DNA of 64,000 nt from Acidobacteriota bacterium (GTDB taxonomy: Bacteria > Acidobacteriota > UBA6911 > RPQK01 > JAJDTT01), in the NCBI GenBank assembly GCA_965222655.1, contig CBDCUP010000003.1, positions 103,932 through 167,931 on the forward strand, in the 5' to 3' direction. The position numbers and the translations under genes are program-made. Below are positions 36,966-63,795 of the stretch, one piece after another (positions within the stretch are counted from its first letter, which is position 1; each line of letters opens with the position of its first letter). The notes below the pieces were generated by a model, which worked only from the letters and a program-made list of their open reading frames with translations, was not told the DNA's origin and did not search any database.

Positions 36966-39254
36966 ATGAGTCCAACGTCCCCAGCCTTCACCTGTTTACC
37001 TCTGATCTTGATGGTGCTCGTTCCACTACAAGAGCAGAGGGGAAGGCCCAGGTCCGCGCCGCCTGAGACCCACGAGCAAGACTCCGTCGTTGGTGGCAGA
37101 AACGTACACTGGTCCTTTCAGCCAATCGAATCCCCGGCAGTGCCCGCAGCAGCGAACCGCTCCTGGGTCAGAAATCCAATCGATGCGTTTGTTCTAAGTA
37201 GACTGGAGAGCGAGAGCATTTCACCTTCTCCCGAAGCCGACAAGAACACCTTGATACGACGGGTCAGTCTGGACCTGGTCGGCTTCCCTCCGTCGCCAGA
37301 CCAGGTCAGCAGCTTCCTGAGCGATGAGCGTCCGGATGCCTACGAACGTTTGGTTGACGGGCTTCTCTCCTCGCCCCACTACGGGGAAAGGTGGGCCCTA
37401 TACTGGTTGGATCTAGCACGCTATGCCGACAGTGACGGCTACGAGGGTGACCGCGTACGACCTCACGCCTGGCGTTATCGTGAGTGGGTCATCAAAGCCC
37501 TCAATGAGGATATGCCATTCGACCAGTTCACTATCGAGCAAATCGCCGGTGACCTTCTTCCGGAGGCCACCATCAAACAGAAAGTAGCAACCGGATTTCA
37601 CCGCAATACATTGACCAACCGGGAAGGCGGCGTGGACGTCGAGCAGTTCCGCTTTGAGCAATTGGTCGACCGCAACAGAACGGTGGGGACCGTGTGGCTG
37701 GGACTCACGGTAGAGTGCGCCCAGTGCCATGACCACAAATATGACCCAATCACACAGAAGGACTACTATCGGCTGCTTGCCTTCTTCAACTCCGACGAGG
37801 AAGTCAATATCGACGCTCCTCTTGCCGGAGAGATGGGGTCCTACACTAGAGGACGACCGGAATATGACGCAAAGCGTCAGAAACTTCTGCAGGAATACGG
37901 CCTGTTTGAACTGCAGAGGCCCTGGGAATTGAAGATGCTTCAGGCCTCGGCCAACCCGGGAAAGTGGCCCGTTTGGGACGATGCCTATGTGATGTTCCAG
38001 TTGTTGCTGGATAACGGCGAAACCATTCTAGGCAACGATCCAGACCGGCGGACCCGCAAGGAGCAATTGGCACTCACGGCCCACTTCGTCGGCAACTACG
38101 GCCGCGTCATCACCAAGGAACGTTCCGAAGAACTCAGGCTCAAAGAACTCAGGAAGAAGCTGGACAATCTCAGCCGGGCTTTTCCGGCCTTGAGTGAGGC
38201 GCAAACGATTGCGGCAAGCGCGCATCCCCGCAAGTCCTACATCCACATCCGAGGGGACTATCGCAACAAGGGGATAGAAGTTCAGCCGGCAACCCCGGGT
38301 TTTCTCCATCCCATGCCGCAGGATTCAAACGGGTCACGGCTCACACTGGCGCGTTGGATAGCTGCCCCGAACAATCCTGTGACGCCCAGGGTGACCGTCA
38401 ATCGACTCTGGCAGGAGCTGCTCGGACGCGGCCTTGTGAGGACCTCGGAGGACTTTGGAAGCCGCGGCGATCGGCCTTCCCACCCGCAACTCCTCGACTG
38501 GCTGGCGAACGACTTTGTGAGTCGCGGTTGGAGTCTGAAGAAGGTGATGAGGCGGATCGTGACGTCTGCGACCTACCGACAATCATCCGCCCGAGGGCCA
38601 GAAATGGAATCCCGCGATCCAGACAACGTCCTGCTGAGCCGGCAGAATCGACTCCGACTCCCGGCCGAGCTGATTCGCGATTCGTCTCTGGCCGTGAGTG
38701 GCTTGCTCTACCCGGCCATCGGGGGAAGGAGCGTGCGGCCCCCCCAACCGGAGGCTGTGACGGGGTTGATGCACTTGAACTTCACATGGGAGGAAAGCCA
38801 GGGCCGGGACCGCTACCGTCGGGGGCTATACGTCCATCGTCAGCGCTCGATGCCCTACCCCCTTCTACAGAATTTCGATGCGCCGGAGTTCACCGTGACG
38901 CTTTGTCGCCGGGAGCGGTCCAACACGCCGCTGCAGGCGCTTAATCTGTTGAACGATCCGGTGTTTTTCGAAGCCGCGCAGGCGCTGGCTGTACGCATCC
39001 TGAGGGATGTGTCCGGGAGCTTTGACGACCGATTGGACCATGCCTTCCAGCTATGCCTTTCCCGCCCTCCCTATCCCAGCGAGCAGCAGCGCATGTCACA
39101 ATATTTTGCGCGCAAACTGAAGCTTTTGGACGAGGGTTCTGCCGAGTCTTTGTTCCCCATCGATCTGGAAGGTGAGAGCAGGATCGAGGCTGCGGCCTGG
39201 GTAGGACTGAGCAGCATCCTGCTCAACCTGGATGAGTTCATCACCAGAGAATAG
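36966..39254 (+). CDS. DUF1549/DUF1553 (PSCyt2/PSD1) domain protein, secreted
   Basis: DUF1549 block is W.RNPIDAF...L...G; DUF1553 blocks are WL.LARYADSDGYE.D..RPHAWRYR.WVI.A, TIEQIAGDLLP, REGGVD.EQFRFE and CAQCHDHKYDP. It is paralogous to 55602..58214. Confidence 0.85.
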   Translation: MSPTSPAFTCLPLILMVLVPLQEQRGRPRSAPPETHEQDSVVGGRNVHWSFQPIESPAVPAAANRSWVRNPIDAFVLSRLESESISPSPEADKNTLIRRVSLDLVGFPPSPDQVSSFLSDERPDAYERLVDGLLSSPHYGERWALYWLDLARYADSDGYEGDRVRPHAWRYREWVIKALNEDMPFDQFTIEQIAGDLLPEATIKQKVATGFHRNTLTNREGGVDVEQFRFEQLVDRNRTVGTVWLGLTVECAQCHDHKYDPITQKDYYRLLAFFNSDEEVNIDAPLAGEMGSYTRGRPEYDAKRQKLLQEYGLFELQRPWELKMLQASANPGKWPVWDDAYVMFQLLLDNGETILGNDPDRRTRKEQLALTAHFVGNYGRVITKERSEELRLKELRKKLDNLSRAFPALSEAQTIAASAHPRKSYIHIRGDYRNKGIEVQPATPGFLHPMPQDSNGSRLTLARWIAAPNNPVTPRVTVNRLWQELLGRGLVRTSEDFGSRGDRPSHPQLLDWLANDFVSRGWSLKKVMRRIVTSATYRQSSARGPEMESRDPDNVLLSRQNRLRLPAELIRDSSLAVSGLLYPAIGGRSVRPPQPEAVTGLMHLNFTWEESQGRDRYRRGLYVHRQRSMPYPLLQNFDAPEFTVTLCRRERSNTPLQALNLLNDPVFFEAAQALAVRILRDVSGSFDDRLDHAFQLCLSRPPYPSEQQRMSQYFARKLKLLDEGSAESLFPIDLEGESRIEAAAWVGLSSILLNLDEFITRE

Positions 39255-39256
39255 CT

Positions 39257-40693
39257 ATGGAATTCGACGAGCTCAGACGGATCCTAACCCGCCGAGACTT
39301 CTTGGGAAGTTGCGCCGCCGGCATCGAAACGATTGCGCTGGCCCAACTGTTGGCCACCGAAGGACGGGCGGAGGGGAACGAACCACCGATCGATAATCCC
39401 TTGGCTCCCAGACCCCCTCATTTCGAACCGACCGCAAAGAACCTGATCGTCCTGTTCATGGCGGGAGCCCCGAGTCAGATTGATTTGTTCGATCCCAAAC
39501 CCGAACTTCAGAAATGGCATGGCCAGTCGCTGCCCCCGTCGATGACCGAGGGGATGAAGCTGGCCTTCATTGAGCCCAGCGCCAAGGTCTTTGCCAGTTC
39601 TCGAACCTTCAAACCCTACGGGGAAAGCGGCATAGAGTTTTCCGATTACCTGCCCCACCTGGCAACCTGTGCCGACGATATCTGCCTGATTCGGTCGATG
39701 TACACCGAAGCCTTCAACCACCATCCAGGCCAACTGTTGCTGATGACGGGCAGCATGCAGTTTGGCCGCCCCACCCTGGGGTCCTGGGTGTCCTATGGTC
39801 TGGGCAGTGAGAGCCAGGACCTTCCCGGGTTCGTGGTTCTGAGCTCGGGAAAGGGAACCAGTGGTGGAACGACCAACTGGTCCTCCGGGTTTCTGCCGTC
39901 GGTGTACCAGGGGGTGCCATTCCGGGATCAGGGAGACCCGATTCTCTATCTGTCCAACCCTGGGGGGATGAGCCAGGAAATGCAGCGGGAGCGGCTGGAC
40001 GCCCTGCGGGACTTGAACCAACAGCATTATCTGAGAACCCGCGATCGTGAAATCGCCTCGCGCATTGCTTCCTACGAGCTGGCCTTTCGAATGCAGGCGG
40101 CTGCCCCACAGTTGATCGATTTCTCGGATGAGCCCAAACACGTCCTCGACAGCTACGGTGTCAACGATGAAACAACCCGGCCTTTCGCTGTCAATTGTCT
40201 GTTGGCCCGCAGAATGGTCGAGCAGGGGGTCCGGTGCATCCTGCTGGCACACTCCAGCTGGGACGACCACGAGCAGATCGACAAGAGGTTGAAAAAGAAC
40301 TGCGCCATTACGGATCAGCCCGCAGCAGCTCTGTTGAAGGACTTAAAGGAGCGAGGCCTGTTGGACAGCACGCTCGTCGTGTGGGGAGGTGAGTTCGGCC
40401 GCACTCCCCTGGCTCAGATCATCCGGGAAAATGAGGGTGCGGGGCGGGATCACCACCCCGACTGCTTTACCATGTGGATGGCAGGAGGCGGGGTCCGCGG
40501 CGGTCAGGTCATCGGGAAAACCGATGAGTTCGGTTTGAGGATCGTCCAGGACAAGGTACACGTCCATGATCTGCAAGCCACGATTCTGCACCTTCTAGGC
40601 CTGGACCATACCCGTTTAACATACCGCCACATGGGCCGCGATTTCCGCCTGACCGATGTGGCTGGCGAGGTGGTGAAAAAAGTTCTCGCTTGA
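39257..40693 (+). CDS. DUF1501 domain protein (sulfatase/alkaline-phosphatase-superfamily-like), Tat-secreted
   Basis: Tat motif LTRRDFLGSCAAG. The DUF1501 blocks are FMAGAPSQ.DLFDPKPEL, HHPGQ, VVWGGEFGRTP and GRDHHP.CF. It starts 2 nt after the DUF1553 stop, so translation is coupled. It is paralogous to 58219..59655. Confidence 0.85.
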   Translation: MEFDELRRILTRRDFLGSCAAGIETIALAQLLATEGRAEGNEPPIDNPLAPRPPHFEPTAKNLIVLFMAGAPSQIDLFDPKPELQKWHGQSLPPSMTEGMKLAFIEPSAKVFASSRTFKPYGESGIEFSDYLPHLATCADDICLIRSMYTEAFNHHPGQLLLMTGSMQFGRPTLGSWVSYGLGSESQDLPGFVVLSSGKGTSGGTTNWSSGFLPSVYQGVPFRDQGDPILYLSNPGGMSQEMQRERLDALRDLNQQHYLRTRDREIASRIASYELAFRMQAAAPQLIDFSDEPKHVLDSYGVNDETTRPFAVNCLLARRMVEQGVRCILLAHSSWDDHEQIDKRLKKNCAITDQPAAALLKDLKERGLLDSTLVVWGGEFGRTPLAQIIRENEGAGRDHHPDCFTMWMAGGGVRGGQVIGKTDEFGLRIVQDKVHVHDLQATILHLLGLDHTRLTYRHMGRDFRLTDVAGEVVKKVLA

Positions 40694-40782: not shown

Positions 40783-42072
40783 TCAGGGGGCCTTTTTCTG
40801 CAAGCTATCAGCCCCGTCAGTCAACCATTCCAGGTCGAAGCGAGCGACTGAAACCTTGGCGTCCGGTCCGGGGTAGCCAGCACCCGAAGTCCAGACCAGG
40901 TCCTTGGTGTAAATGCAGAGAATGCTCATGTCAGGCGCAACCGCAAGGTTCGAGTAGCCGGCCGATCCCGGGTAGAGGACCTTCGATACCGGCCAGGTTT
41001 TGCCCTCGTCGTAGCTGAGCCTGATCGTCATCTGGGATCTCTCAGTCGTGCTGGCCGGGTTGGACACTAGGATACGATTCTTGTTGAAACTCTCCTGATC
41101 GGTGAAGCGCACCACGCTGCCCTGACAGGAAGGCTCGGGGAGCGTCTCGTCGTATTTCACCTCCGACCAGGTTTCCCCACCGTCCTTGCTCCAGGCATAG
41201 CCGCGGCGATGGCTCTGATCAATAACTCGAGATGATGGCCACCTTTGCTTAGCAGTACGGCTCCTCAGAGTCATGTACAAGGTACCGTCAACGGTTTCTA
41301 CGGCCTCACACTCATCGGATTTGTCCTTGGTCAGAATTTCGCCTCGCTTCCAGGTTTCTCCGTGATCGTCGCTGAAGAAGGCATAGGACCACTGGACATT
41401 CTGGGGGCGCCACTGCCTCCAGATCACGGGTCGCATAAGGGAGTAGACCATCTCGATCACGTCCTTTAGTTGGCCCTCGGCGCCCTCTGCTAATTCGACG
41501 GGTCCCGGAGTTTCATCTCCCCAGGCCGGTATCAGAAGCCGTCCACTCTTCAGCTGGATGCCGTGCCCCGGACCTGACCCAAGGAAACTCCAGACGGGAT
41601 CCTTGACGTCGTCGGTGATTTCGACCGGCTCCGACCAGGTCTCACCATCGTCTGTGCTTTTCTTCACGAAGACCTGGCGGTTGTTCTTGCAGTAGAGGAG
41701 CACAATGGTTCCGGTCTGGTGATCCACCACCGGACATTCATTGCCAATCGTGTGTTTCCCGTCATCGGCCACGACCTGCATCTCCTCCCAGGTCTGGCCG
41801 CTATCGAAACTGCGTCTGAGCACAATGTCGGTATCGTCCCAATCATGGCCGTCGTTCTTCCTGGCTTCGGCAAAGGCGAGGATCGTCCCCTTGGTCGAAA
41901 CCGCTAGCGCAGGAATCCGGTAGAGAAAGTACCCTCCCTCTCCAACTTTAAACAAAGCCGTTTCAACCGGCGACCCCGCGCTTTCCTGGCTTTCTGGATC
42001 CGACATTGGCGGTTCCGAAGCCGTGCAGCCTAAAAGGAAGGCAGTAAGAAGTATCGGGATGATGTGTCTCAT
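40783..42072 (-). CDS. Exo-alpha-sialidase (GH33), lipoprotein
   Basis: Lipobox MRHIIPILLTAFLLGC. YRIP motif (YFLYRIPALAVS). Asp-boxes are SFDSGQTW, STDDGETWS, SDDHGETWK and SKDGGETWS. It is about 55-60% identical by eye to 12..1286. Confidence 0.85.
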   Translation of the reverse strand: MRHIIPILLTAFLLGCTASEPPMSDPESQESAGSPVETALFKVGEGGYFLYRIPALAVSTKGTILAFAEARKNDGHDWDDTDIVLRRSFDSGQTWEEMQVVADDGKHTIGNECPVVDHQTGTIVLLYCKNNRQVFVKKSTDDGETWSEPVEITDDVKDPVWSFLGSGPGHGIQLKSGRLLIPAWGDETPGPVELAEGAEGQLKDVIEMVYSLMRPVIWRQWRPQNVQWSYAFFSDDHGETWKRGEILTKDKSDECEAVETVDGTLYMTLRSRTAKQRWPSSRVIDQSHRRGYAWSKDGGETWSEVKYDETLPEPSCQGSVVRFTDQESFNKNRILVSNPASTTERSQMTIRLSYDEGKTWPVSKVLYPGSAGYSNLAVAPDMSILCIYTKDLVWTSGAGYPGPDAKVSVARFDLEWLTDGADSLQKKAP

Positions 42073-42331
42073 GACTCAGCCTCCTGTGATTGTTTCTGGA
42101 AGTGGTTCTGGACATCGCTTGAAGGATCCTTCCAAGTAGTAGGCTCTTCTGGGGCCTAAGTCAACAGGCCGGACGACGATACGGCCCTTATTTCGAGAGG
42201 AGACTGATCCGTTCGAACGAGGGGGGATACAAATCTTGCCTCGTCGGCGCAGTGGGAGTACATTGGTCAATCATTATCAGGCAGTCTTTCTGTCAAGTCT
42301 TTTTCTACCCAACCAAAGGAGGGAACCAATC

Positions 42332-44089
42332 ATGTCTTCCAACCGAAGGAATTTCTTGAAGACCGTGGCTGCGGCAGGCGGAACCGCTGCTGCTGCTGGC
42401 ACACTTTCCGCATCCACAGGCCCAGGGGCTGTCTCCAGCGCCGAGTCTCACGGCAGTAAAGAAAAACCCCCGTTTCGTTTGATCTGGGAGGGGGAGTGGA
42501 ACGATGTGCCCTGCTCCGACTATCCACTGACCCCGGAAAGATGGGCCAAAGAAGCCCTGGCGCCCCTGGCCAACACCCACGTGGACGCTTTGGCCTACAA
42601 CGTCTGCAGCAGCGACGGCTATGTCGCCCAGCTGGAGCACGGGGAATTGCTGCTCGACAACGTCGAGCAGTTCGAAGATGCCTGGTATTGGAGATACCGG
42701 GAAAACACCAAGGGGCTGATCAAGGCAGGCGCCAACCCTCCCGACATGGCCGTCAAGTATGGACAGAAATACGGGATGAAGATCTTCGCGGTCATCCGGA
42801 TGAACGATCCCCACGACCAGGTCTACGCCTTCAGGCACGAGGTAAGTAATTTCAAGCTAAACCACCCTGAGTATTTGCTGGGAAACCCGCACTGGGAAGT
42901 AGGTGACAAGGCTCAAAAGGAATACGCGCCGGATACCATGGAATCCTTCACCTGGGGCCTGTTTGACTACTCTCACAAGGCGGTGCGGGATCACAAGCTG
43001 GCCATCATCAATGAGTTCGCCACTCGCTGGGATAACGATGGAGTCATGCTGGATTTCGAGCGGGATCCCATGTACTTCTGGCCTCCCCAGGGAGGTGGGG
43101 CTAAGCCCGAGAACCAGGAGAAGATGACCGATCTGATCCGATCAATCAGAGCGACGCTGGACAAAGTTCAGGCTCAACGCGGGAAAAAGCAGTTACTGAT
43201 GGTGCGGGGAGTTGCCAACATCCAGTTGTGTCAGGAGCGTGGATTGGATATCCCCACCTGGGTCAAGGAAGGCCTGGTGCAAGTAATCATTCCAGGAGCG
43301 GGCTACGCACCCTTCACGTTGAACCTGAAGCCCTGGCTGGAGCTGGTGGAAGGTAAGGAGTGTTGGATCTATCCTTCGAACAACCATTGGAAACATACCG
43401 AGGTCACCAGGGCCTGGGCGCTCCAGATGCTCGACGAAGGAGCCCATGGGCTCTACCTCTTCAACTGGGGCCATCTGATATTCGGTTACAGGGCGGCCGA
43501 GTCCCCCTTGGTTCCCGTCGGTTCCAACTGGCGCGGGAGCGCCTATTCGGTCTGGTACGATGAGGCCCCTCCCGACTTCTACACCACTCTGCACGAGATC
43601 GGAGATATTCGAGCCGTGCAGTTCAAGAACAAGCGGTACGTCCTGGATTCGATCCCGCATGAGGTGATGAAGGATCGGCTGCGGGGCGGCAAGATAGGTA
43701 GCCGGCTGTATCGAGGAATCGACGATGTCGTGCTACCCGTGGAGCTCTCAGTCGGCCGGCATGAGGTCCCATTCCGGATCTCTGACGCTCTGCAATCGGC
43801 TCACGAGTACGGATTCGATCCCAAGGCCACACTCACGATGATGATCGTGAATCACACTCATCCTGATCGCTTCACGGTAACCTTGAACGATACGCTTCTG
43901 AACGATGACACCCGCTCGAGCCGGGATGTCTACATCATGAACAACTTCTCCAGGGTGCAGTATCCGATTCCGTTAGAGGCGCTGAATCATGGACAGAACA
44001 CGCTGAAGCTCCACATGACCAAGACCAATCCGCAGATGAGGCCCAACCCGGTGCTGCAGAACGTGGATATCTCGATCGAGTACGTCTGA
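42332..44089 (+). CDS. Tat-secreted TIM-barrel-like protein of an uncharacterised glycoside-hydrolase-like family (paralog)
   Basis: Tat motif MSSNRRNFLKTVAAAGG. Start at ATG 42332, preceded by AAGGAGGG. It is about 70% identical to 59929..61677 (PPFRLIWEGEWNDVPCSDYPLTPE.WA, IRMND.HDQ, AIINEFATRWDNDGVMLDF.RDPM.FWPPQGG, LYLFNWGHL). Confidence 0.6.
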   Translation: MSSNRRNFLKTVAAAGGTAAAAGTLSASTGPGAVSSAESHGSKEKPPFRLIWEGEWNDVPCSDYPLTPERWAKEALAPLANTHVDALAYNVCSSDGYVAQLEHGELLLDNVEQFEDAWYWRYRENTKGLIKAGANPPDMAVKYGQKYGMKIFAVIRMNDPHDQVYAFRHEVSNFKLNHPEYLLGNPHWEVGDKAQKEYAPDTMESFTWGLFDYSHKAVRDHKLAIINEFATRWDNDGVMLDFERDPMYFWPPQGGGAKPENQEKMTDLIRSIRATLDKVQAQRGKKQLLMVRGVANIQLCQERGLDIPTWVKEGLVQVIIPGAGYAPFTLNLKPWLELVEGKECWIYPSNNHWKHTEVTRAWALQMLDEGAHGLYLFNWGHLIFGYRAAESPLVPVGSNWRGSAYSVWYDEAPPDFYTTLHEIGDIRAVQFKNKRYVLDSIPHEVMKDRLRGGKIGSRLYRGIDDVVLPVELSVGRHEVPFRISDALQSAHEYGFDPKATLTMMIVNHTHPDRFTVTLNDTLLNDDTRSSRDVYIMNNFSRVQYPIPLEALNHGQNTLKLHMTKTNPQMRPNPVLQNVDISIEYV

Positions 44090-44138
44090 TTTCCAAGACG
44101 CCACCGCGGCCGTGATTGAGGTTGGCGGACGTAGCTTT

Positions 44139-44201
44139 GGTCTCCAGGCCGAAGTCTTCTGCTCTCGAGCCTTCGGCTCGAAGCACGGCGGCCTGGAGAC
44201 C
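44139..44201. repeat. Second copy of the GGTCTCCAGGCCG...CGGCCTGGAGACC hairpin repeat, between convergent genes
   Basis: tttggtctccaggccgaagtcttctgctctcgagccttcggctcgaagcacggcggcctggagaccaccgctacgac aligns with 40705-40778. The 5' arm is partly eroded. Confidence 0.65.
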
Positions 44202-44259
44202 ACCGCTACGACTTCCTCTGAAGTCTCGGCATGAATGATCCAGGGGCGTTGAAGCATGT

Positions 44260-52136: not shown

Positions 52137-52216
52137 AGAGTTTGATGCGCCGTGTCCCCTGCTATTGCGCGGAGAAAGGTTGCTCAGGGAATTCTTGCTT
52201 AAGGAGCGAGGTCTCG

Positions 52217-55500: not shown

Positions 55501-55601
55501 CGGCCTGGGCGAGGGAGTCCTTGGCTTGGCTTGATTGCCCATACTAGAAGGTCCAGAATGGACCCAAGTTGATCGTGTTCGAACCATCCACATTGCCCCA
55601 G

Positions 55602-58214
55602 ATGAACTTGAAGCGTCTGGGACTGGTCACGCTTTCAGGGATTCTCCTTACCTCCTTCACCTCGCAAAACCCCGGGGGAGCGGCTGCCGAAGAGCTTCCA
55701 CCGCCAGCAGAAAGCGGAGCGGATTTCATCCGTGACGTAAAACCCATTTTCGAGAGCCGCTGCTACAGCTGCCACGGCTCCCAACAGCAATTGGGTGGCC
55801 TGCGCCTTAATCGCCGAGAGGACGCCCTTCGAGGAGGTAATTCCGGCCCCTCGATCCATCCGGGAAATAGTGCGGAAAGCAAGTTGATCCACCTGGTAGC
55901 GGGCGTCAAGGAAGGTGAAGTGATGCCCCTGGTAGGAGAGAGGCTCACCCGCCAGGAAGTCGGAATCCTTCGCACCTGGATCGATGATGGTGCGGACTGG
56001 CCGGTGGTCGCGGATCCCCAGAATACAAAGGCTGACACCGATTCTTCCAGCGAAAACAACTCGCACTGGTCCTTCCAACCGATTGAGCGACCTGAAGTTC
56101 CCGCGGTTCGGAAGCGGAACTGGATCAGGAACCCGATCGACGCCTTTATTATGGCCAGGCTGGAGGAGGAAGGAATCGCGCCTTCCGCACAGGCCGATCA
56201 GATCACGCTGATTCGTCGGCTGAGTCTCGACTTGATCGGGCTCCCCCCGACTCCCGAGGACGTCTCGAAGTTCCTGATGGACAACCGCTCGGATGCCTAC
56301 GAGCATCTGGTCGACCGATTCCTAGAATCTGAGCACTACGGTGAGAAGTGGGCCGTGCACTGGCTTGATCTTGCCCGCTATGCCGACAGTGACGGCTACG
56401 AGAAAGATTGGGTCAGGCCCCACGCCTGGCGCTACCGCCATTGGGTCATCGACGCCCTGAATCGAGACATGCCTTTCAACCAGTTCACGATCGAGCAGAT
56501 CGCGGGCGACTTGCTTCCCAACGCTACCACTGCACAAAAGGTAGCCACAGGTTTTCATCGGAACACGCTGACCAACCGTGAGGGCGGCGTCGACATCGAA
56601 CAGTTCCGCTTCGAGCAGGTTATCGACCGAGCCAACACCGTGGGAACGGTCTGGCTGGGACTGACCGTAGGCTGCGCACAGTGTCACGATCACAAATACG
56701 ACCCGATTTCCCAGAAAGACTACTATCGCCTCTTCGCCTTCTTCGACGGGGACGAGGAGGTCAACATCGAAGCCCAGCTCCCCGGTGAGATGGGGCCCTA
56801 TTTGCAAGCTCTTCCTGGATATCTCGAAAGGCGCCAGGCCTTGTTGGAAGAGTACGGAGCTCCCGCACTTCAACCCGCCTGGGAAAAGAGGATGCTGGAG
56901 ACGGCGGCCAATCCGGGTAAGTGGACCGACTGGGACGAGGCTTATGACGCTTTGGAGAAGACCCTGGATAACGGCAACAAGATTCTGAAAACCGACCCGC
57001 CCAGACGCACGCGGAAAGAAGGAACGGCGCTAGAGGATCATTTCGCAAGAAACTACAACCGGGTGCTGAGCAAGGAGCGCCAGGAGGAGCTCAAGTTCAA
57101 AGAGCTGTACGAAAAGCTTGTTGAAATGCGGGAATCGTTCCCGGCTTTGAGTCAGGCGCAGACGATTGCCACGAGCCAGAGCCCGATCGAAACGCATGTC
57201 CATCTCCGGGGAGACTATCAAGCGAAAGGCATCCAGGTTCAACCAGGAACCCCCGAGTTCTTGAATTCAGTGCCCTCTGATCCCAAGCCCAACCGACTCA
57301 CGCTGGCTCGCTGGATCACCTCTGACGAGAACCCCCTGACCGCCAGAGTGGCCGTGAACCGCCTCTGGCAGGAACTGTTCGGCCAGGGGCTCGTAAGGAC
57401 TTCCGAAGACTTCGGAACACAGGGGCAGAGACCTTCTCATCCGAAGCTCCTGGACTGGCTGGCGACGGAGTTCGTGAGCCGCGACTGGAGCATCAAGGCG
57501 ATGATCAAGACCATCGTAGTGTCAGCCGCCTACCGGCAGTCCTCCCAGGAGAGGCCCTCGCTGGAGTCTGGTGAACAGGAAAATTCGCTGATCGCCCGTC
57601 AATCCCGTCTGCGGCTGCCCGCTGAGTTGATCCGAGACGCGGCGCTGTCAGCAAGTGGCCTCTTGAACCCATCCATCGGGGGAAAGAGTGTAAGGCCCCC
57701 TCAACCGAAGGAGGTTGTCGACGTGGGCTTTGGCAATTCTGTGAAATGGGAAGAGAGTCGAGGCGCTGGTCGGTACCGCCGCGGACTTTACATTCATTTC
57801 CAGCGGACGGTTCCGTATCCGTTCTTGATGAATTTCGATGCTTCCGAAAAGAACATCACCTCCTGCCGGAGGAACCGCTCGAACACGCCCCTACAGGCTC
57901 TAAACCTGCTGAATGATCCAGTATTCCTGGAAGCGGCCCAGGCACTTGCTGCCCGCACACTGCGGGAGGTCCCGGGCAGTTTTGATAATCGCCTGGGGCA
58001 CGCATTTCGGCTCTGCCTGGCCCGCGACCCCAGATCGAGCGAGCGCACGAGGCTGACCGAGTACTTTCGACAGCAGCAGCAGATGTTGGATTCGGAAACG
58101 GCCCAGGTGCTGTTCCCACTCGATCTCGACGGCGTCGATCGGATTCAAGCAGCGGCCTGGGTGGGTCTCAGCAGTGTCCTGTTGAACCTGGACGAGTTCG
58201 TCAGCCGGGAGTAG
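55602..58214 (+). CDS. PSCyt1 (CxxCH cytochrome-c-like) plus DUF1549 plus DUF1553 domain protein, secreted
   Basis: Start at ATG 55602 (MNLKRLGLVTLSGILLTSF). The heme motif CYSCHG lies within the PSCyt1 block FIRDVKPIFESRCYSCHGSQQQLGGLRL. DUF1549/DUF1553 blocks are as in 36966..39254 (WLDLARYADSDGYEKDWVRPHAWRYRHWVIDA, CAQCHDHKYDP). Confidence 0.85.
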   Translation: MNLKRLGLVTLSGILLTSFTSQNPGGAAAEELPPPAESGADFIRDVKPIFESRCYSCHGSQQQLGGLRLNRREDALRGGNSGPSIHPGNSAESKLIHLVAGVKEGEVMPLVGERLTRQEVGILRTWIDDGADWPVVADPQNTKADTDSSSENNSHWSFQPIERPEVPAVRKRNWIRNPIDAFIMARLEEEGIAPSAQADQITLIRRLSLDLIGLPPTPEDVSKFLMDNRSDAYEHLVDRFLESEHYGEKWAVHWLDLARYADSDGYEKDWVRPHAWRYRHWVIDALNRDMPFNQFTIEQIAGDLLPNATTAQKVATGFHRNTLTNREGGVDIEQFRFEQVIDRANTVGTVWLGLTVGCAQCHDHKYDPISQKDYYRLFAFFDGDEEVNIEAQLPGEMGPYLQALPGYLERRQALLEEYGAPALQPAWEKRMLETAANPGKWTDWDEAYDALEKTLDNGNKILKTDPPRRTRKEGTALEDHFARNYNRVLSKERQEELKFKELYEKLVEMRESFPALSQAQTIATSQSPIETHVHLRGDYQAKGIQVQPGTPEFLNSVPSDPKPNRLTLARWITSDENPLTARVAVNRLWQELFGQGLVRTSEDFGTQGQRPSHPKLLDWLATEFVSRDWSIKAMIKTIVVSAAYRQSSQERPSLESGEQENSLIARQSRLRLPAELIRDAALSASGLLNPSIGGKSVRPPQPKEVVDVGFGNSVKWEESRGAGRYRRGLYIHFQRTVPYPFLMNFDASEKNITSCRRNRSNTPLQALNLLNDPVFLEAAQALAARTLREVPGSFDNRLGHAFRLCLARDPRSSERTRLTEYFRQQQQMLDSETAQVLFPLDLDGVDRIQAAAWVGLSSVLLNLDEFVSRE

Positions 58215-58218
58215 AAAG

Positions 58219-59655
58219 ATGGATCTGAGAACATTCAAACTCTCTCAAACCCGTCGTGATTTTCTCAGCAGATGTGCCGGCGGAATCGGGACTGTTGCCC
58301 TGGCGCATCTGATGGCGTTGGAGGGGCGTACCGCTACGAGTCGGTTGACCGGGACCAATCCTCTGGCTCCCAAGTCTCCTCACTTCGCCCCCACCGCCAA
58401 GAACATGATCTTCCTTTTCATGGCGGGTGCTCCCAGCCAGCTCGACCTGTTCGATCCCAAACCGGAGCTAGTGAAGTGGCACGGAAAGCCGCTTCCCGGC
58501 TCCATGACGAAGGATCTAAAACTGGCATTCATCAAACCGTCGGCAAAGATCTTGGCGAGCGCTCGGCAGTTCAAGAAATATGGTGAGTGCGGTATGGAGT
58601 TTTCCGACTACCTGCCTCACACGGCGTCCAAGGCCGATGACATCTGTCTGATTCGTTCCATGCACACCGAGGCATTCAACCACCATCCGGGTCAGATGCT
58701 GTTGACGAGCGGTACGACCCAATTCGGGCGACCCACCGTGGGGTCCTGGGCGGTGTACGGACTGGGCAGCGAAAACCAGGACCTGCCCGGCTTCGTCGTC
58801 CTCAGCTCGGGTCGAGGGACCAGCGGAGGCTCCAACAATTGGTCGAGCGGTTTTCTCCCCTCACTGTACCAGGGAGTCCCTTTTCGAAGCAAAGGAGCCC
58901 CGATCCTCTATTTGCCCAACCCCCCGGGAGTCGGTCCGGAGATGCAGCGGGCCCGGCTGGACGCCCTTCGCGACCTCAACCAGGACGAGTATCTGGAAAC
59001 GGGAGATCGCGAGATCCTCTCTCGAATCGCATCCTACGAACTGGCCTATCGGATGCAGATGTCGGCCCCAGATTTGCTCGATTTCTCCGACGAACCCAAA
59101 CATATTCTGGACCTCTACGGTGTCAACCAAGAGCCTACCGGGCCCTACGCAACCAATTGTTTGCTGGCGAGGCGGATGGTCGAACGGGGGGTTCGCTTCG
59201 TCATGCTGGCCCATGCAAGCTGGGACGATCACGATAAGATCGACGAAGGCCTGAAGAAGAACTGTGAGATCACCGATCAGCCCATAGCTGCGCTCTTGCA
59301 GGACCTGAAGCAGCGCGGGCTATTAGACACCACCTTGGTTGTCTGGGGCGGCGAATTCGGCCGCACGCCCCTGTCCCAGGCTGGCCGTGCCGACCAGGCG
59401 CCGGGACGCGATCACCATCCAGATTGTTTCAGCATGTGGTTAGCCGGCGGAGGAATCCGAGGCGGCCAGACCATCGGCAAAACGGACGAACTCGGTTTGA
59501 ACGTGGTTGAGGACAAGATCCACATTCACGACCTACAGGCCACTATCCTCAAGTGTCTGGGCTTCGACCACACAAAGCTGACCTACCACCACATGGGACG
59601 AGACTTTCGCCTCACAGATGTCGGAGGGAAGGTCGTTGAAAAACTGCTGGTGTAG
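58219..59655 (+). CDS. DUF1501 domain protein (sulfatase-like), Tat-secreted
   Basis: Tat motif QTRRDFLSRCAGG. Roughly 75% identical to 39257..40693. It starts 4 nt after the DUF1553 stop. Confidence 0.85.
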   Translation: MDLRTFKLSQTRRDFLSRCAGGIGTVALAHLMALEGRTATSRLTGTNPLAPKSPHFAPTAKNMIFLFMAGAPSQLDLFDPKPELVKWHGKPLPGSMTKDLKLAFIKPSAKILASARQFKKYGECGMEFSDYLPHTASKADDICLIRSMHTEAFNHHPGQMLLTSGTTQFGRPTVGSWAVYGLGSENQDLPGFVVLSSGRGTSGGSNNWSSGFLPSLYQGVPFRSKGAPILYLPNPPGVGPEMQRARLDALRDLNQDEYLETGDREILSRIASYELAYRMQMSAPDLLDFSDEPKHILDLYGVNQEPTGPYATNCLLARRMVERGVRFVMLAHASWDDHDKIDEGLKKNCEITDQPIAALLQDLKQRGLLDTTLVVWGGEFGRTPLSQAGRADQAPGRDHHPDCFSMWLAGGGIRGGQTIGKTDELGLNVVEDKIHIHDLQATILKCLGFDHTKLTYHHMGRDFRLTDVGGKVVEKLLV

Positions 59656-59745
59656 CCCTTTTTGCAGGCTTCTAAGCTGACTTCATTTGGTTTCAGATTA
59701 CAGGTTAAAGGTTCCCGTTTGCCGAAAAACATGAAACGAAATCCG

Positions 59746-59822
59746 ACAGAGCCGCGAGCGACTTGACTCGTCAGCAACATGAGGCCAATTTCCGAGGAGC
59801 GACCGGTCAGCAGCACAATCTA
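59746..59822 (+). repeat. Intergenic repeat family copy D
   Basis: gacagagccgcgagcgacttgactcgtcagcaacatgaggccaatttccgaggagcgaccggtcagcagcacaatct. Its reverse strand encodes MLLTGRSSEIGLMLLTSQVARGSVGF (track ORF 59583..59816). Confidence 0.6.
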
Positions 59823-59928
59823 CCCTGTACTCAACCGGAGTTTCTTTCTCGAATGGGGCCAGCTCGGCTGGGGGCGCGACCTGTAAAGATAGTACGACCC
59901 TGGAACAACCACAACGGAAGGAGATCCC

Positions 59929-61677
59929 ATGTCTTTCAACCGCAGGAACTTTCTAAGAACTGTAGCGGCAGCAGGCGGAACTGCCGCTTCGGCCAGTGCC
60001 TTGGCGAAAGCCTCAGCAGCTCGAGGCCCAAGCGGTACTGCCGCGACAGAGGACAATCGTCCCCCCTTTCGACTCATCTGGGAAGGTGAATGGAACGACG
60101 TTCCCTGTTCGGATTACCCCCTGACACCAGAGAAGTGGGCGCAGGAATCGATCACTCCGATCGTCAACACCGACGTGGATGCCTTGGTCTACAACCTTTG
60201 CAGCAGCGACGGCTACGTCGCCGAGCTGAAGAACGGCGAGCGGCTACTCGCCAACGTCAAGCAGTTTGACGATTCCTGGATCTGGCGCTATCGAGAAAAC
60301 ACCAAACGGCTGATCGAGGCGGGGGCCAACCCCCCCGATCTGGCGGTCAAATATGGGCGCAGGTATGGGTTGAAGATCTTCCCGGCCATCCGCATGAACG
60401 ATGCCCACGATCAATACTTTCTTCCCGAGGTAAGCGACTTCAAGCTGAAGAATCCGCAGTACCTCCTCGGCAATCCGCACTGGGGAGAGAAGGAGCAAAA
60501 GGAATATCCACTGGGCAAGATGGAGTGCTTCACCTGGGGCATGTTTGATTTTTCCCATAAGGCAATACGGGACCACAAGCTGGCTATCATCAACGAGTTT
60601 GCAACCCGCTGGGATAACGACGGAGTGATGCTGGATTTCGATCGCGATCCCATGTTCTTCTGGCCGCCTCAGGGCGGTGGTGGCAAGCCAGAGAATCAGG
60701 AGAAGATGACCGATCTGATCCGATCGGTGCGTGCCACCCTGGATAAAGTCGAAACAGAACGAGGAAAGAAGCAATTCCTGATGGTACGCCTGATCCCCAG
60801 CATCGAGGTTTGCCTCGAGAGGGGATTGGATGTCGCCACCTGGGTGAAGGAAGGTCTGGTTCAGGTGATTATTCCCGGCTCGGGTTTCGCTCCCCTGACG
60901 CTGGACCCGAAGCCCTGGCTGGAGTTGGTGGAAGGAAAGGAATGTTGGATCTACCCGGGAAACTGGCACTGGAGACCCACCAGGGAGACGCGGGCCTGGG
61001 CCGCTCAGATGCTCGACCAGGGAGCCCACGGGCTCTACCTGTTCAACTGGGGTCATCTTCTGATGGGGTACAGGCCAGGAGACCGACCCCCACCCCCGCT
61101 GCTGGGCCGCACGGAATGGCGCAATCAAGGCGGTTCGGTCTGGAGGAGTGAACTCGATCCCGATTACTACACCACCTTGAGTGAGATTGGTGACATTCGG
61201 AAAGTGCAGTTCAAGGCCAAGACCTACCTGCTGGATTCGCACCCGCACGAGCTGATCGAGAGACATGGAAGAACCCACGGAAAGCTGTTCCGCGAATACC
61301 GGGCGATCGATGACGTGGTTCTGCCCATCACCCTTTCGGTCGGCCGGCACGAGGTTCCCTTCCGAATCGGCGACGATCTCGCTCTGGCTCAGGAGGCCGC
61401 CTTCGCTCCCCGAGCAAGGCTCAAGATGGTGATCGTCAATACCACTCATCCAGACCGCTTCAGCGTGACACTGAACGACATCCCTCTGGATGACGCGACC
61501 CGTACGACTCGAGATGTGTTCATCATGAACAACTTCACTAGGGTGGAGTATCCCCTCCCGGTGGAAGCACTCGAGAGAGGCAAGAACCGGCTGAGGATCG
61601 AGATGCATGAAACCAATCCTCAGATGCGTGTGGATCCCGTCCTCGATAGCGTGGAGATTGAGATCGACTACGCATGA
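59929..61677 (+). CDS. Tat-secreted TIM-barrel-like protein of an uncharacterised glycoside-hydrolase-like family (paralog)
   Basis: Tat motif MSFNRRNFLRTVAAAGG, with AAGGAG upstream. See 42332..44089. Confidence 0.6.
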   Translation: MSFNRRNFLRTVAAAGGTAASASALAKASAARGPSGTAATEDNRPPFRLIWEGEWNDVPCSDYPLTPEKWAQESITPIVNTDVDALVYNLCSSDGYVAELKNGERLLANVKQFDDSWIWRYRENTKRLIEAGANPPDLAVKYGRRYGLKIFPAIRMNDAHDQYFLPEVSDFKLKNPQYLLGNPHWGEKEQKEYPLGKMECFTWGMFDFSHKAIRDHKLAIINEFATRWDNDGVMLDFDRDPMFFWPPQGGGGKPENQEKMTDLIRSVRATLDKVETERGKKQFLMVRLIPSIEVCLERGLDVATWVKEGLVQVIIPGSGFAPLTLDPKPWLELVEGKECWIYPGNWHWRPTRETRAWAAQMLDQGAHGLYLFNWGHLLMGYRPGDRPPPPLLGRTEWRNQGGSVWRSELDPDYYTTLSEIGDIRKVQFKAKTYLLDSHPHELIERHGRTHGKLFREYRAIDDVVLPITLSVGRHEVPFRIGDDLALAQEAAFAPRARLKMVIVNTTHPDRFSVTLNDIPLDDATRTTRDVFIMNNFTRVEYPLPVEALERGKNRLRIEMHETNPQMRVDPVLDSVEIEIDYA

Positions 61678-62552
61678 GCTCTGAGCCAAAAGGGTTGCCG
61701 AAGTATGACAAGCGTCGGATCGTTCATATCAAGGGAGTGGACCATCCCGAGTCCATTGGTGTTGGACCGGGAGGTGAAGCCTATACCACCGGGACCGGGT
61801 GTCAGGTGTATCGCCTGGACCTGGACAACAACACAGCGAAACAGTTCGCTCAAACTGAATCTCGTTGTCTGGGCTCAGTAGTCGACTCGGAGGGGAATCT
61901 GTATCTGGCACACACGGCGGGTGATGTCCTGAAGATCACACTCGACGGGGAAACCCGCGTCTACGCTGCGGGGCCAGGCGGCCAACCCTTCCTTTGCACC
62001 AACTACCCTGCCTTCGACCAGCGCGGCAACATGTATCTCTCCGACAGTGGTGATTGGTCGGAGAAGATCAACGGACATATCTATCGGGTGAAGCCCGGAG
62101 GAGGAGAGGCCGGGCTATGGTACCCCGAGCCGCTCGACACACCCAACGCCATCGCACTCGATGCCAAAGAAGAGAACCTGTACTTCGTAGAGACGCACGG
62201 CGGTGCTATTGCTCGAATCGAGATCAACGAGGACGGTTCGGCAGGTGCCTTCGAGAGAATCGTACACATGCCACGCCACGTGCCCGACGGCATCGCTTTC
62301 GACAACGACGGGAGACTCTGGATCGCTTGCCATCGTCCTGACGCGATCTACTACTTCGATCTCCAGTCCAAGCGCCTGGAACTGTTCTGTGAAGATTGGG
62401 CGGGAGAGGCGCTTCGGGGGCCGACGGACATCTCATTCGCGGGGCCTGACCGCGAGATCATGCTGGCCGCTTCTCTGGACAACCTGGTGGTCCACCGCTT
62501 CGACGGCACCGGCGTCAGAGGACTGGAGCTCAACAATCCTGTGATCGGATAA
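61674..62552 (+). CDS. SMP-30/gluconolactonase/LRE-like beta-propeller protein (candidate sugar lactonase), cytoplasmic
   Basis: Propeller blade motifs (VVDSEGNLYLA, DQRGNMYLSD, PNAIALDAKEENLYFVE, PDGIAFDNDGRLWIA). It overlaps the upstream stop by 4 nt (ATGA). Confidence 0.6.
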   Translation: MSSEPKGLPKYDKRRIVHIKGVDHPESIGVGPGGEAYTTGTGCQVYRLDLDNNTAKQFAQTESRCLGSVVDSEGNLYLAHTAGDVLKITLDGETRVYAAGPGGQPFLCTNYPAFDQRGNMYLSDSGDWSEKINGHIYRVKPGGGEAGLWYPEPLDTPNAIALDAKEENLYFVETHGGAIARIEINEDGSAGAFERIVHMPRHVPDGIAFDNDGRLWIACHRPDAIYYFDLQSKRLELFCEDWAGEALRGPTDISFAGPDREIMLAASLDNLVVHRFDGTGVRGLELNNPVIG

Positions 62553-62622
62553 TGGAGCGTTTGGCTCCACCCGAACGGTCCCGAAGCCGAGTCGATCCGA
62601 GGGAAGATGCCAGGAGGACTCC

Positions 62623-63795
62623 ATGAAGATCAGTGACATCAAAGTGCACATCATGAGCGTTCCCCGACCCGACGGCAGCCGGGTGATGCGCAACTGGATC
62701 TTTGTCGAGGTTTCCACCGACGAAGGGATCACCGGTATCGGCGAAGCAACGACTGAATACCACGAACTGGCAATCAAGGCTCAGATTGAGACGGAATTGA
62801 AGCCCAGGCTGCTGGGCATGGACCCAACCGACATCGAGCGGATCTGGCAGCTTGGATACCGGGACTTCTGGTGGCGACGAGGTGTCGTACAGAGCAGCGC
62901 CATGAGTGGTATCGACCAGGCCCTATGGGACATCAGTGGCAAGGCCGCGGGACTTCCCGTGTTCAAACTGCTGGGTGGCGCGGTGCGAGACAAGGTTCGC
63001 TGCTATATCCGCTATGGCCCCGAGTTTTATGGGGTCAGTCTCGAAGATGCCGTCCGAGCTGCCCTCGAGATGGGATTCGACGCCTTTAAACTCGGTTTTG
63101 GCTCGGTGACGAAACCCTATAACATGAGTCGGCAGACAGAGATTGCCATCGCGGAGCACACCAAGGTGAGGGAGATCATGGGTCCCGGGGTAGCGCTGAT
63201 GATCGACGCCGCTTGCATGTTTGACCCGCAGTCCGCGCACCGGCTCATTGCAGGGTTACGGCCCTTGGACATGACTTTCGTCGAGGAGCCGACCAACATG
63301 GACACGATCGAACCGACGCGGCGACTGAAGCGGGACTTCCCCGACGTCAAGATCGCCTTGGGAGAACGTCTGAACACCCGCTGGGATTTCCGTCCCTGGT
63401 TCGAGCAGCAGGCGATCGACGTCTGTCAGGCCGACATATGTCACGCCGGGGGGATCAGCGAGTTGATGAAGATCGCCCACTTCGCCGAGGTCTACGGGAT
63501 CCTGATGGCACCGCACAATCCGTACGGTCCGGTCGCGCTGGCAGCATGCGCACATGCCGCCGCGGCCATTCAGAATTTCCTGATCCTGGAACACTGTCCC
63601 ATTCAGCCCTGGTTCGAACAGGTGCAGCGGGTCGAGATACCAGTTCGACAGGGTCATATTGACGTGGCTGAACTTGCCCAGCATCCGGGATTGGGAGTAG
63701 AACTCGACATGGACCTCGTCCGCTCACGCAATCAACACCTCCCCATGGAGGCTTCGCGCTACACTGCCGTAGACGGCTCTACACCGTTGCTTTAA
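62623..63795 (+). CDS. Enolase-superfamily dehydratase (mandelate racemase / D-galactonate dehydratase-like)
   Basis: N-terminal capping domain MKISDIKVH...WIFVEVSTDEGITGIGEAT. The barrel regions include GLPVFKLLGGAVRD and a C-terminal region beginning with KIAHFAEVYGILMAPHN. It is paralogous to the frameshifted gene at 7641..8827. Confidence 0.8.
   Translation: MKISDIKVHIMSVPRPDGSRVMRNWIFVEVSTDEGITGIGEATTEYHELAIKAQIETELKPRLLGMDPTDIERIWQLGYRDFWWRRGVVQSSAMSGIDQALWDISGKAAGLPVFKLLGGAVRDKVRCYIRYGPEFYGVSLEDAVRAALEMGFDAFKLGFGSVTKPYNMSRQTEIAIAEHTKVREIMGPGVALMIDAACMFDPQSAHRLIAGLRPLDMTFVEEPTNMDTIEPTRRLKRDFPDVKIALGERLNTRWDFRPWFEQQAIDVCQADICHAGGISELMKIAHFAEVYGILMAPHNPYGPVALAACAHAAAAIQNFLILEHCPIQPWFEQVQRVEIPVRQGHIDVAELAQHPGLGVELDMDLVRSRNQHLPMEASRYTAVDGSTPLL

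Follow-up and report, generated by a model that had tools for sequence, protein, structure and literature searches.

A putative sialoglycan-utilisation island of an Acidobacteriota genome with a Tat-exported GH156-like subfamily beside two PSD-DUF1501 cassettes

In a 64,000-nucleotide stretch of an Acidobacteriota genome (assembly GCA_965222655.1, contig CBDCUP010000003.1, positions 103,932 to 167,931; hereafter the window), a PSCyt2/PSD1 (DUF1549/DUF1553) gene, here called PSD, is directly followed by a DUF1501 gene at two places. Each pair is followed by a member of one family of proteins carrying a twin-arginine (Tat) export signal, and each has a glycoside hydrolase family 33 (GH33) sialidase in its vicinity. 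The locus thus raises the question of what the Tat-exported proteins X1 and X2 and their distant paralog X3 are, and whether they form a conserved module with the PSD-DUF1501 pairs and the sialidases. The open reading frames (ORFs) of the window were listed and scanned against Pfam, with additional use of NCBIfam (Table 1). With a probability of roughly 0.65, we favour the reading that the window is a sialoglycan-utilisation island with a new GH156 subfamily, beside which the PSD-DUF1501 cassettes came to lie by rearrangement and duplication, not as parts of a conserved module.

An original prediction, made from the sequence alone, had described X1 and X2 as Tat-secreted proteins of the same family, each following a pair, and X3 as a non-Tat paralog located 13 bp after a polysaccharide deacetylase gene. 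Both descriptions were borne out: X1 and X2 are 68% identical and carry the twin-arginine signal NRRNFL, while X3 is 28% identical to X2 over 346 aa and has a hydrophobic N-terminus. The family had also been called uncharacterised, which did not hold. A single-sequence phmmer search with X2 against the PDB returned one solved protein, the GH156 sialidase EnvSia156 (6RZD, E 6e-17), which was also matched by X3 (E 1.3e-24), but not by an N-terminal fragment of X3 alone. The match strengthened to E 8.4e-45 with a profile of 27 family sequences (A1), and to E 4.7e-82 with a profile of 80 diverse representatives (A4), which covered chain residues 9–489, nearly the full protein. Family X has the (β/α)8 barrel and C-terminal β-sandwich fold of EnvSia156. 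The proposed check by Pfam models was informative for X3 only, which matches GHL10 (PF02638); Pfam holds no GH156 model, and X1 and X2 gave nothing beyond the Tat signal in Pfam or NCBIfam.

EnvSia156 is an inverting exo-sialidase in which Asp14 serves as base, His134 as acid, and Arg129, Arg202 and Asn346 as the carboxylate triad, with Arg246 buried in the active site (PDB 6RZD; PMC6254351; PMC6811678). Residues Arg129, His134, Arg202, Arg246 and Asn346 correspond to Arg155, His160, Arg239, Arg287 and Asn373 of X2; their equivalents are kept in X1, X2 and X3, and are 88–98% conserved across the 80 representatives (95%, 90% and 98% for the triad columns Arg129, Arg202 and Asn346 in A4). The His134 column contains His in all three window proteins and in 71 of the 80 representatives, and His160 of X2 lies within an RMNDxH motif. 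The Asp14 column, placed only with the deeper 80-sequence profile, contains Asp in 72/80 representatives and in X3, and Glu (E54) in X1 and X2, a conservative change. The Asn preceding the base (EnvSia156 Asn12) is likewise Glu in X1 and X2, and X3 keeps the N-x-D-G base motif. Of the five residues used to recognise putative GH156 sialidases, X3 has all five, and X1 and X2 have four, with the conservative substitution at the fifth.

Judged by these sequence features, X1 and X2 are predicted to be a distinct, Tat-exported GH156 subfamily outside the reach of Pfam. They are ~22% identical to EnvSia156, from which they differ in the two Glu residues of the base motif, in the twin-arginine signal and in the +1 aromatic pocket, where Trp164 aligns with Phe and Phe203 with Asp. 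GH156, GH33 and the PSD-DUF1501 cassette were already known; new here are the placing in GH156 of a Tat-exported clade that has no Pfam model, the Glu that stands for Asp at the base position of this clade, and a dense acidobacterial sialidase island. At E ≤ 1e-3 the family profile retrieved 4,861 representatives of clusters built at 50% identity, 1,802 of them at E ≤ 1e-30, labelled in the source databases as ‘hypothetical protein’ or ‘family 10 glycosylhydrolase’, so that a GH156-like assignment becomes available for widespread proteins without a Pfam family. The Glu-base clade merits testing for altered specificity.

The genomic context of the family was analysed in 78 loci of X relatives from species-representative genomes of Acidobacteriota, Lentisphaeria, Opitutales, Planctomycetota and other groups, in which ORFs within 10 kb were searched with a hidden Markov model built from the four BNR proteins of the window. 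A BNR-like ORF was detected in 47 of the 78 loci, the BNR3 type being the commonest neighbour. The frequency was 16/23 for loci of the X1/X2 clade (5.2 per 100 kb) and 31/55 for X3-like loci (7.9 per 100 kb; 30 within 3 kb), as compared with 1/80 for loci centred on DUF1501 (0.12 per 100 kb). SGL lactonase genes were found in 5–6 of the 23 X1/X2-clade loci. Orthologs of X3 fused to BNR_2 occur among P0149, P0158, P0159, P0163, P0164, P0170, P0176, P0179, P0180, P0187 and P0195, and two others (P0181 and P0198) are fused to SGNH/GDSL esterase domains. Such fusions are Rosetta-stone evidence from which the X3-type subfamily is predicted to work with sialidase-superfamily and (O-acetyl-)esterase activities. 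A unit comprising a TonB-dependent receptor, X and a BNR/GH33 gene recurs in Acidobacteriota (loci L007, L008 and L016), the adjoining receptor relatives having 42–48% identity. Because of the BNR-like neighbours, the BNR_2 fusions and these receptor-containing units, the functional association of GH156-like with BNR/GH33 proteins under a common sialidase theme is well supported. The glycan context of the original prediction is therefore stronger than supposed, since the Tat-secreted family itself is homologous to a sialidase family.

The sialidases of the window are consistent with this theme. A motif scan revealed YRIP in GH33_a and FRIP in GH33_b, each with five Asp-boxes on a six-bladed BNR propeller, as expected of GH33. 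Like the exo-α-sialidase of Micromonospora viridifaciens (PDB 1EUR), both have the BNR_2 propeller and a Tyr that aligns within the conserved C-terminal segment, and the matches to solved sialidases reach E ~1e-39 (2.3e-39 for GH33_a against 1eur). Unlike that enzyme, they are short lipoprotein-type proteins lacking carbohydrate-binding module (CBM) or lectin domains. BNR3, which lacks the RIP motif, is a member of the superfamily only. The 64 kb contain three GH33 proteins, one BNR protein and three GH156-like proteins, a sialidase density unusual for a soil Acidobacterium. The claim that a sialidase stands beside each pair was correct as to proximity, but GH33_a, between DUF1501_1 and X1, is on the opposite strand, and GH33_b is separated from PSD_2, 3.4 kb downstream of it, by unk330 and unk784.

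The PSD-DUF1501 pairs conform to a translationally coupled, widespread cassette that has been described before. Clusters of DUF1501, PSCyt1, PSCyt2 and PSD1 genes with Tat signals and carbohydrate-binding-domain fusions were reported by Kamneva 2012 (PMC3542564), and the pairing of PSCyt2 genes with an uncharacterised family, together with sulfatase neighbours and a possible carbohydrate role, by He 2017 (PMC5615132). The cassette is known from Planctomycetes, Verrucomicrobia, Lentisphaerae and Acidobacteria, in many copies per genome, and a carbohydrate role has been hypothesised from CBM fusions and sulfatase or glycoside hydrolase neighbours (PMC3542564; PMC5615132). The suggestion of a previously undescribed module joining DUF1501/PSD, X and GH33 is thus anticipated as far as the cassette and its carbohydrate link are concerned. 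Like the known examples, both window pairs have a PSCyt2+PSD1 gene, with the motif CAQCH in PSCyt2, that directly precedes a Tat-signal DUF1501 gene; the ORF list and Pfam agree with the predicted spacing, the gaps being 2 nt in pair 1 and 4 nt in pair 2. They differ from the known cassette in lying inside a sialidase-rich island, and one copy lacks PSCyt1. This copy, PSD_1, has one CxxCH (CAQCH, residue 251) and no PSCyt1 remnant upstream, and its ortholog in locus L162 likewise lacks PSCyt1. PSD_2 has two such motifs, at residues 65 (CYSCH) and 369 (CAQCH, in PSCyt2), numbered from the TTG start at 55569. A haem motif had been noticed in PSD_2 and is present there, but it is not restricted to that protein.

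The function of the cassette was approached by sequence and structure comparison. Searches of the PDB by sequence returned nothing for DUF1501 and only noise-level cytochrome and protease matches for PSD_2, and no functional study of DUF1501, DUF1553, DUF1549 or PSCyt proteins turned up in literature searches. The prediction that DUF1501 is sulfatase-like found a counterpart only in fold comparison, at low similarity. An AlphaFold2 model of DUF1501_2 of moderate quality (pLDDT 71) gave S1 sulfatases (E ~5e-6), LtaS and NPP as best PDB matches in Foldseek, with probability ~1.0, but with TM values of 0.26–0.36 and 9–13% identity. The formylglycine motif C/S-x-P-x-R of S1 sulfatases is absent from DUF1501_1 and DUF1501_2, and a looser [CS]x[PA]xR scan found only SQAGR at residue 386 of DUF1501_2, away from the usual N-terminal position. 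The earlier guess of desulfation or oxidation therefore receives no specific support. DUF1501 further differs from S1 sulfatases in its Tat export. Its invariant motifs (GAPSQxDxFDPK, FNHHP, SWDDH and GRDHH) include acidic and His residues that could bind metal, as would suit an alkaline-phosphatase-superfamily hydrolase that depends on metal.

In a reciprocal test of the module, 80 metagenomic loci with DUF1501 proteins 47–72% identical to the window copies were examined. PSD lies directly upstream of DUF1501 in 66 of these, most of the remainder being truncated contigs; an X-like ORF occurs in one, and a BNR-like ORF in one. Around X, a DUF1501 gene lies within 10 kb in 3–5 of the 78 loci, namely in the close Acidobacteriota relatives L001 and L005 and, distantly, in L021, L059 and L063; X orthologs of Lentisphaeria, Opitutales, Planctomycetota and other Acidobacteriota are without the pair. 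In single-sequence phmmer counts, the 80 DUF1501 loci showed no enrichment of enolase, SGL, GFO/IDH/MocA, Amidohydro_2, AP_endonuc_2 or TonB-dependent receptor genes, for which reason the idea that the pair is generally tied to sugar-acid catabolism was dropped. A conserved PSD-DUF1501-X(-GH33) module was rejected on the co-occurrence counts together with the separation of its parts in a sister genome, and the co-occurrence that the original prediction had expected was thus not seen in the broad sample.

The sister genome, the metagenome-assembled genome (MAG) CBDCMS, contains the segment from the TonB-dependent receptor to PSD_1-DUF1501_1-GH33_a collinear with window positions 20064–42076 (locus L005). 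The X1 ortholog begins a separate block, ~34 kb away and collinear with 42294–53552 (L002), and the X2 ortholog is located elsewhere, after formate-dehydrogenase-like and hydantoinase genes and before SGL, enolase, xylose-isomerase-like and major facilitator superfamily (MFS) transporter genes (L003). L003 becomes homologous to the window only from 59918 onwards, 11 bp ahead of the X2 start codon, and the junction between DUF1501_2 and X2 is therefore interpreted as a rearrangement breakpoint. X2, SGL and enolase are kept together in L001 and L003, and the series of X2, SGL, dehydratase, isomerase and MFS transporter behaves as a unit of its own. The isomerase-like gene expected after the dehydratase was confirmed as a xylose-isomerase-like AP_endonuc_2 gene, beyond which the MFS transporter follows in relatives. 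Of the 4-bp overlaps said to run through the second module, only that between X2 and SGL was found; the other gaps are 273 nt between DUF1501_2 and X2, 70 nt between SGL and enolase, and 21 nt between enolase and the xylose-isomerase-like gene. The 273-nt spacer measures 33 nt in L001, the extra sequence of the window holding a short dispersed repeat.

How the two modules arose is the point on which an alternative survives best. The modules may not descend from duplication of a three-gene block, members of the very large DUF1501/PSD family having instead come by chance to lie near recently duplicated X genes, a contender that we place only somewhat short of an even chance. More than 100 cluster representatives are 69–80% identical to DUF1501_2, many of them closer to it than DUF1501_1 is (72%). 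X1 and X2, in turn, are mutual closest non-orthologs, at 68% as against ≤56% for other members apart from X1/X2 orthologs, and the layouts differ in the opposite strand of GH33_a in module 1, the 273-nt spacer in module 2, and the presence of PSCyt1 in PSD_2 only. The common gene order and the similar divergence of the three proteins (65% identity for PSD, 72% for DUF1501 and 68% for X) would, however, also fit an old block duplication.

It is less likely, though a serious minority view, that X1 and X2 have the GH156 fold but are not sialidases, the clade-specific E-x-E-W-N-D that replaces N-x-D-G marking another substrate or a non-hydrolytic role. Candidate substrates would then be Kdo, Kdn, pseudaminic acid and legionaminic acid, or else uronic acids and other acidic sugars from polysaccharides of microbes or plants. 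Glu is rare at both positions, occurring in 3/80 representatives in the base column and in 4/80 in the preceding Asn column, and the lack of conservation of the +1 pocket points in the same direction. For GH156 as a whole, low sequence identity and a probable diversity of substrates have been noted (bioRxiv 10.1101/2022.06.28.497753). The host, moreover, is a soil bacterium. Classical N-acetylneuraminic acid (Neu5Ac) glycans are scarce in soil. Against this alternative, the intact carboxylate triad and catalytic His indicate a 2-keto-acid sugar substrate, the dominant neighbours are BNR/GH33 genes with canonical FRIP and Asp-boxes, and the Asp-to-Glu change is conservative and allowed by the substitution rule for putative GH156 sialidases.

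Several observations weigh against the reading that we favour. The two base-motif Glu residues of X1 and X2 could reflect another substrate or altered chemistry, and sialidase activity, though most likely for both, is a prediction. Gene order is partly conserved: MAG CBDCOR (L001) is collinear with window positions 49749–63999 and keeps the order of module 2, and MAG locus L162 keeps that of module 1 (thiamine-pyrophosphate enzyme, PSD, DUF1501, GH33 on the minus strand, X, FG-GAP, Mo-oxidoreductase and TPR), so that the separation of X1 in CBDCMS may be an insertion. A scan of the 273-nt spacer revealed nothing that resembles a terminator, which leaves room for co-transcription of DUF1501_2 and X2. 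Finally, in the closest DUF1501 clade (the >100 representatives mentioned above, several per genome), a GH33 gene lies within 3.5 kb of the pair at 3 of 9 independent loci, namely module 1, module 2 and L159. In L159, whose DUF1501 is 80% identical to DUF1501_2, a sialidase with BNR_assoc_N and BNR_2 domains lies 1 kb after the pair; with 29% identity to GH33_a, GH33_b and GH33_c, it belongs to a different lineage, and the juxtaposition is thus independent. With an assumed background of ~5%, the binomial probability of 3/9 is ~0.01 for what is a small sample from sialidase-rich genomes, in which modules 1 and 2 may share ancestry. The adjacency is higher than expected from a low background, and a lineage-specific functional tie is a lead, not a finding.

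For this comparison, contexts were sampled from distinct clusters, with identities given relative to DUF1501_2; by clustering, most matches at 73% are orthologs of DUF1501_1. The pair is accompanied by Amidohydro_2, AP_endonuc_2, TRAP transporter, DHDPS and sulfatase genes in L166 (~69%), by an MR_MLE enolase in L167 (~70%), by a second pair and transposases in L168 (~70%), by no glycan gene in L169 (~72%), by a TonB-dependent receptor, GFO_IDH_MocA and 3-keto-disaccharide hydrolase genes in L170 (~73%), and by TonB-dependent receptors without a sialidase in L079 (72%). In L161, L164 and L165 (73%; contigs of 4.18 Mb, 0.5 Mb and 2.1 Mb), a recent duplicate comprises the C-terminal 267 aa of PSD_1, DUF1501_1 (97–99% identical) and GH33_a (88%). 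This duplicate adjoins prophage-like genes, including a Peptidase_S74 (endosialidase-chaperone-type domain) gene and a terminase, with an N-acetylglucosamine (GlcNAc) 2-epimerase and another BNR_2 gene nearby.

These observations would also fit an acidobacterial subclade of the cassette that was recruited to sialoglycan breakdown alongside GH33 and GH156, with DUF1501 and PSD removing or altering a substituent, such as a sulfate, phosphate or other ester, of sialylated glycans or of the acid sugars set free from them. This proposal, which narrows the original prediction to a single clade, we regard as improbable. In its favour are the 3/9 adjacency with the unrelated L159 sialidase, the co-directional run from GH33_b through DUF1501_2 with gaps of 5 to 101 nt, the preservation of each module order in at least one other MAG, and the MR_MLE, Amidohydro_2, AP_endonuc_2, GFO_IDH_MocA and TonB-dependent receptor genes beside other pairs of the clade. 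On the other side, a sialidase is absent at 6/9 close-clade loci, the wider family shows the single BNR-like and single X-like ORF in 80 loci, X1 and X2 are apart from the pairs in the sister genome, a single ancestral block behind modules 1 and 2 would reduce the number of independent events, the sample is small and drawn from sialidase-rich genomes, and DUF1501 has neither the C/S-x-P-x-R motif nor a strong fold match. Slightly less probable still is a Bryobacterales-type subclade dedicated to periplasmic sialoglycan processing alongside GH33 and the Glu-base GH156 subfamily, with a substituent of sialylated glycans or of free nonulosonic acids as its target. If true, it would for the first time link a substrate to a protein family that ranks among the largest uncharacterised ones in Planctomycetota, Verrucomicrobiota and Acidobacteriota.

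Any coupling of DUF1501/PSD to sialidases is therefore at best specific to this lineage, and unproven. For the DUF1501/PSD puzzle, the lack of a conserved neighbourhood makes the outcome largely negative. Sialidase adjacency does recur in one narrow clade, where it is open to experimental testing; a coupling there, if real, would be a useful way into this very large family.

The favoured reading, an island of a Bryobacterales-like genome that is specialised in cleaving off terminal sialic acids or related nonulosonic acids, suggests the following pathway. Glycans capped with these acids would be taken up or attacked at the envelope, and the caps would be removed by the lipoprotein GH33 enzymes (retaining) and the Tat-exported GH156-like enzymes (inverting). 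X1 and X2 would act as inverting exo-sialidases with His160 as acid, Glu54 as base in place of Asp, and Arg155, Arg239 and Asn373 holding the carboxylate. Other glycosidases would then trim the underlying glycan, and the lactonase and dehydratase genes that appear coupled to X2 may channel the released sugars into oxidative lactone, sugar-acid and 2-keto-3-deoxy routes. The PSD-DUF1501 cassettes would perform a periplasmic chemistry of their own, by means of a protein with haem motifs and an alkaline-phosphatase-superfamily enzyme exported through Tat, and would have been brought beside the GH156-like genes through rearrangement and duplication in a plastic island.

Table 1 Features of the window; positions are counted from its first nucleotide.
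Feature	Position	Strand	Annotation
GH33_c	12..1328	-	third GH33-like sialidase; BNR_2 E 6e-32; 55-57% identity to GH33_a and GH33_b
Split enolase-superfamily gene	7641-8189 and 8186-8827		two ORFs with 4-bp overlap; MR_MLE_N in the first, MR_MLE_C in the second
BNR3	10712..12046	+	BNR_2 sialidase-superfamily protein (Pfam); Tat-like signal SSRRVFVKSG
Polysaccharide deacetylase-domain protein	13038..15023	+	PF01522 E 4e-10; 13 bp upstream of X3
X3	15037..16560	+	GH156-like, other subfamily; PF02638 35.7 bits; 6rzd E 1.3e-24; Sec-type N-terminus
372-aa protein	17918-19036	-	unassigned; twin-arginine-type signal, SRREFLRTTAVG
TonB-dependent outer-membrane receptor	19142..22471	-	CarboxypepD_reg and OMP_b-brl_4 (Pfam)
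Transposase gene	23170-24354		IS256/Mutator family
TPR-repeat protein gene	24822-26162	-	around FG-GAP paralogs
FG-GAP/ASPIC-UnbV paralog	26455-28176	-	
PSD_1	36966..39254	+	PSCyt2 (DUF1549) and PSD1 (DUF1553), 762 aa; Pfam E 2e-91 and 3e-95
DUF1501_1	39257..40693	+	PF07394 E 4.6e-162; Tat signal TRRDFL
GH33_a	40783..42072	-	exo-alpha-sialidase-like lipoprotein; BNR_2 E 3e-35
X1	42332..44089	+	Tat-exported GH156-like; barrel and C-terminal beta-sandwich domains
FG-GAP/ASPIC-UnbV paralog	44260-46116	-	
Sulfite-oxidase-like molybdopterin oxidoreductase and TPR-repeat protein genes	46137-47441 and 47463-50955		around FG-GAP paralogs
GH33_b	50979..52136	+	exo-alpha-sialidase-like lipoprotein; BNR_2 E 5.8e-38
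unk330	52142..53134	+	secreted; no family match in Pfam or NCBIfam; kept in L001 and L002
unk784	53146..55500	+	784 aa; weak GH67-N-like N-terminal domain
PSD_2	55602..58214	+	TTG-started ORF from 55569; PSCyt1, PSCyt2 and PSD1 (Pfam); signal peptide
DUF1501_2	58219..59655	+	PF07394 E 3e-157; Tat signal TRRDFL
Spacer DUF1501_2/X2	59656..59928		273 nt; one copy of the ~80-95-nt intergenic repeat
X2	59929..61677	+	Tat-exported GH156-like protein
SMP-30/gluconolactonase-family (SGL) lactonase	61674..62552	+	PF08450 E 2.9e-22; 4-bp overlap with X2
Enolase-superfamily sugar-acid dehydratase	62623..63795	+	MR_MLE_N and MR_MLE_C
Xylose-isomerase-like TIM-barrel (AP_endonuc_2) gene, 5' end	63817..64000	+	translation matches that of L003:13894-14883, which hits PF01261
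Repeat core copy	12197-12216	-	
Repeat core copy	16636-16655	-	
Repeat core copy	32787-32806	+	
Repeat core copy	59747-59766	+	

Among the neighbouring genes, the dehydratase downstream of SGL has galactonate dehydratase NF010624 as its closest model (287.5 bits, below the 311 cut-off). Apart from the sialidase-type and GH156-like proteins and the TonB-dependent receptor, the window encodes a GH2, lactonases, two enolase-superfamily dehydratases, a GFO/IDH/MocA oxidoreductase, a pyrroloquinoline quinone (PQQ) dehydrogenase and MFS transporters. The split of the enolase-superfamily gene probably stems from a frameshift that made it a pseudogene, or from a sequencing error. An Rfam scan of the window found no RNA family, and promoter and terminator counts in a scan of 55.3–64 kb did not exceed the expectation from shuffled sequence.

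The match of unk784 to an alpha-glucuronidase N-domain is marginal (PF03648, 17.8 bits, below the cut-off), whereas a paralog in L003 exceeds the cut-off with 27 bits. A 62% ortholog adjoins X and SGL in a Solibacteraceae MAG (L022:13854-16073(-)), and a 34% paralog lies downstream of the X2 unit. Proteins of this type, of ~790 aa, recur near X and SGL in L001:16560-18866(-), L003:16605-19016(-) and the Solibacteraceae locus, and are probably an undescribed glycosidase-like component of these loci.

In two Acidobacteriota-like contigs, the pair directly follows a TonB-dependent receptor gene, with gaps of 18 nt (L170:312-7372) and 7 nt (L079), and precedes GFO_IDH_MocA and 3-keto-disaccharide-hydrolase genes. 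The receptor adjacency hints at a role of the pair in the periplasmic processing of imported substrates.

Tat-type signals were also observed on BNR3 and the 372-aa protein, and Tat export thus appears to be common among the secreted proteins of the island. Each FG-GAP/ASPIC-UnbV paralog adjoins TPR-repeat proteins, and one also adjoins the sulfite-oxidase-like molybdopterin oxidoreductase; this block is kept together with X1 in L002 and L162.

The 2.4 kb of the window that hold the IS256/Mutator transposase correspond to ~0.6 kb in the sister genome (L005), and the transposase is interpreted as a recent insertion because of this difference. The sister genome further encodes an extra GH156-like paralog (L005:10001-11701), 50% identical to X1 and X2, between a PQQ dehydrogenase and an SGL lactonase gene. 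The corresponding site of the window (~32675-32897) is a short gap with one copy of the intergenic repeat, which suggests a deletion in the genome of the window or an insertion in the sister genome.

The core of this repeat, CAGAGCCGCnnnCGnCTTGA, occurs four times in the window, as compared with 0.04 copies expected by chance. The repeat has no Rfam match, and its folding is not better than that of shuffled sequence (z +1.6). Full copies extend over ~80–95 nt (for example 59738–59830), related copies are present in L088 and L162, and every copy in the window sits just 3' of a gene.

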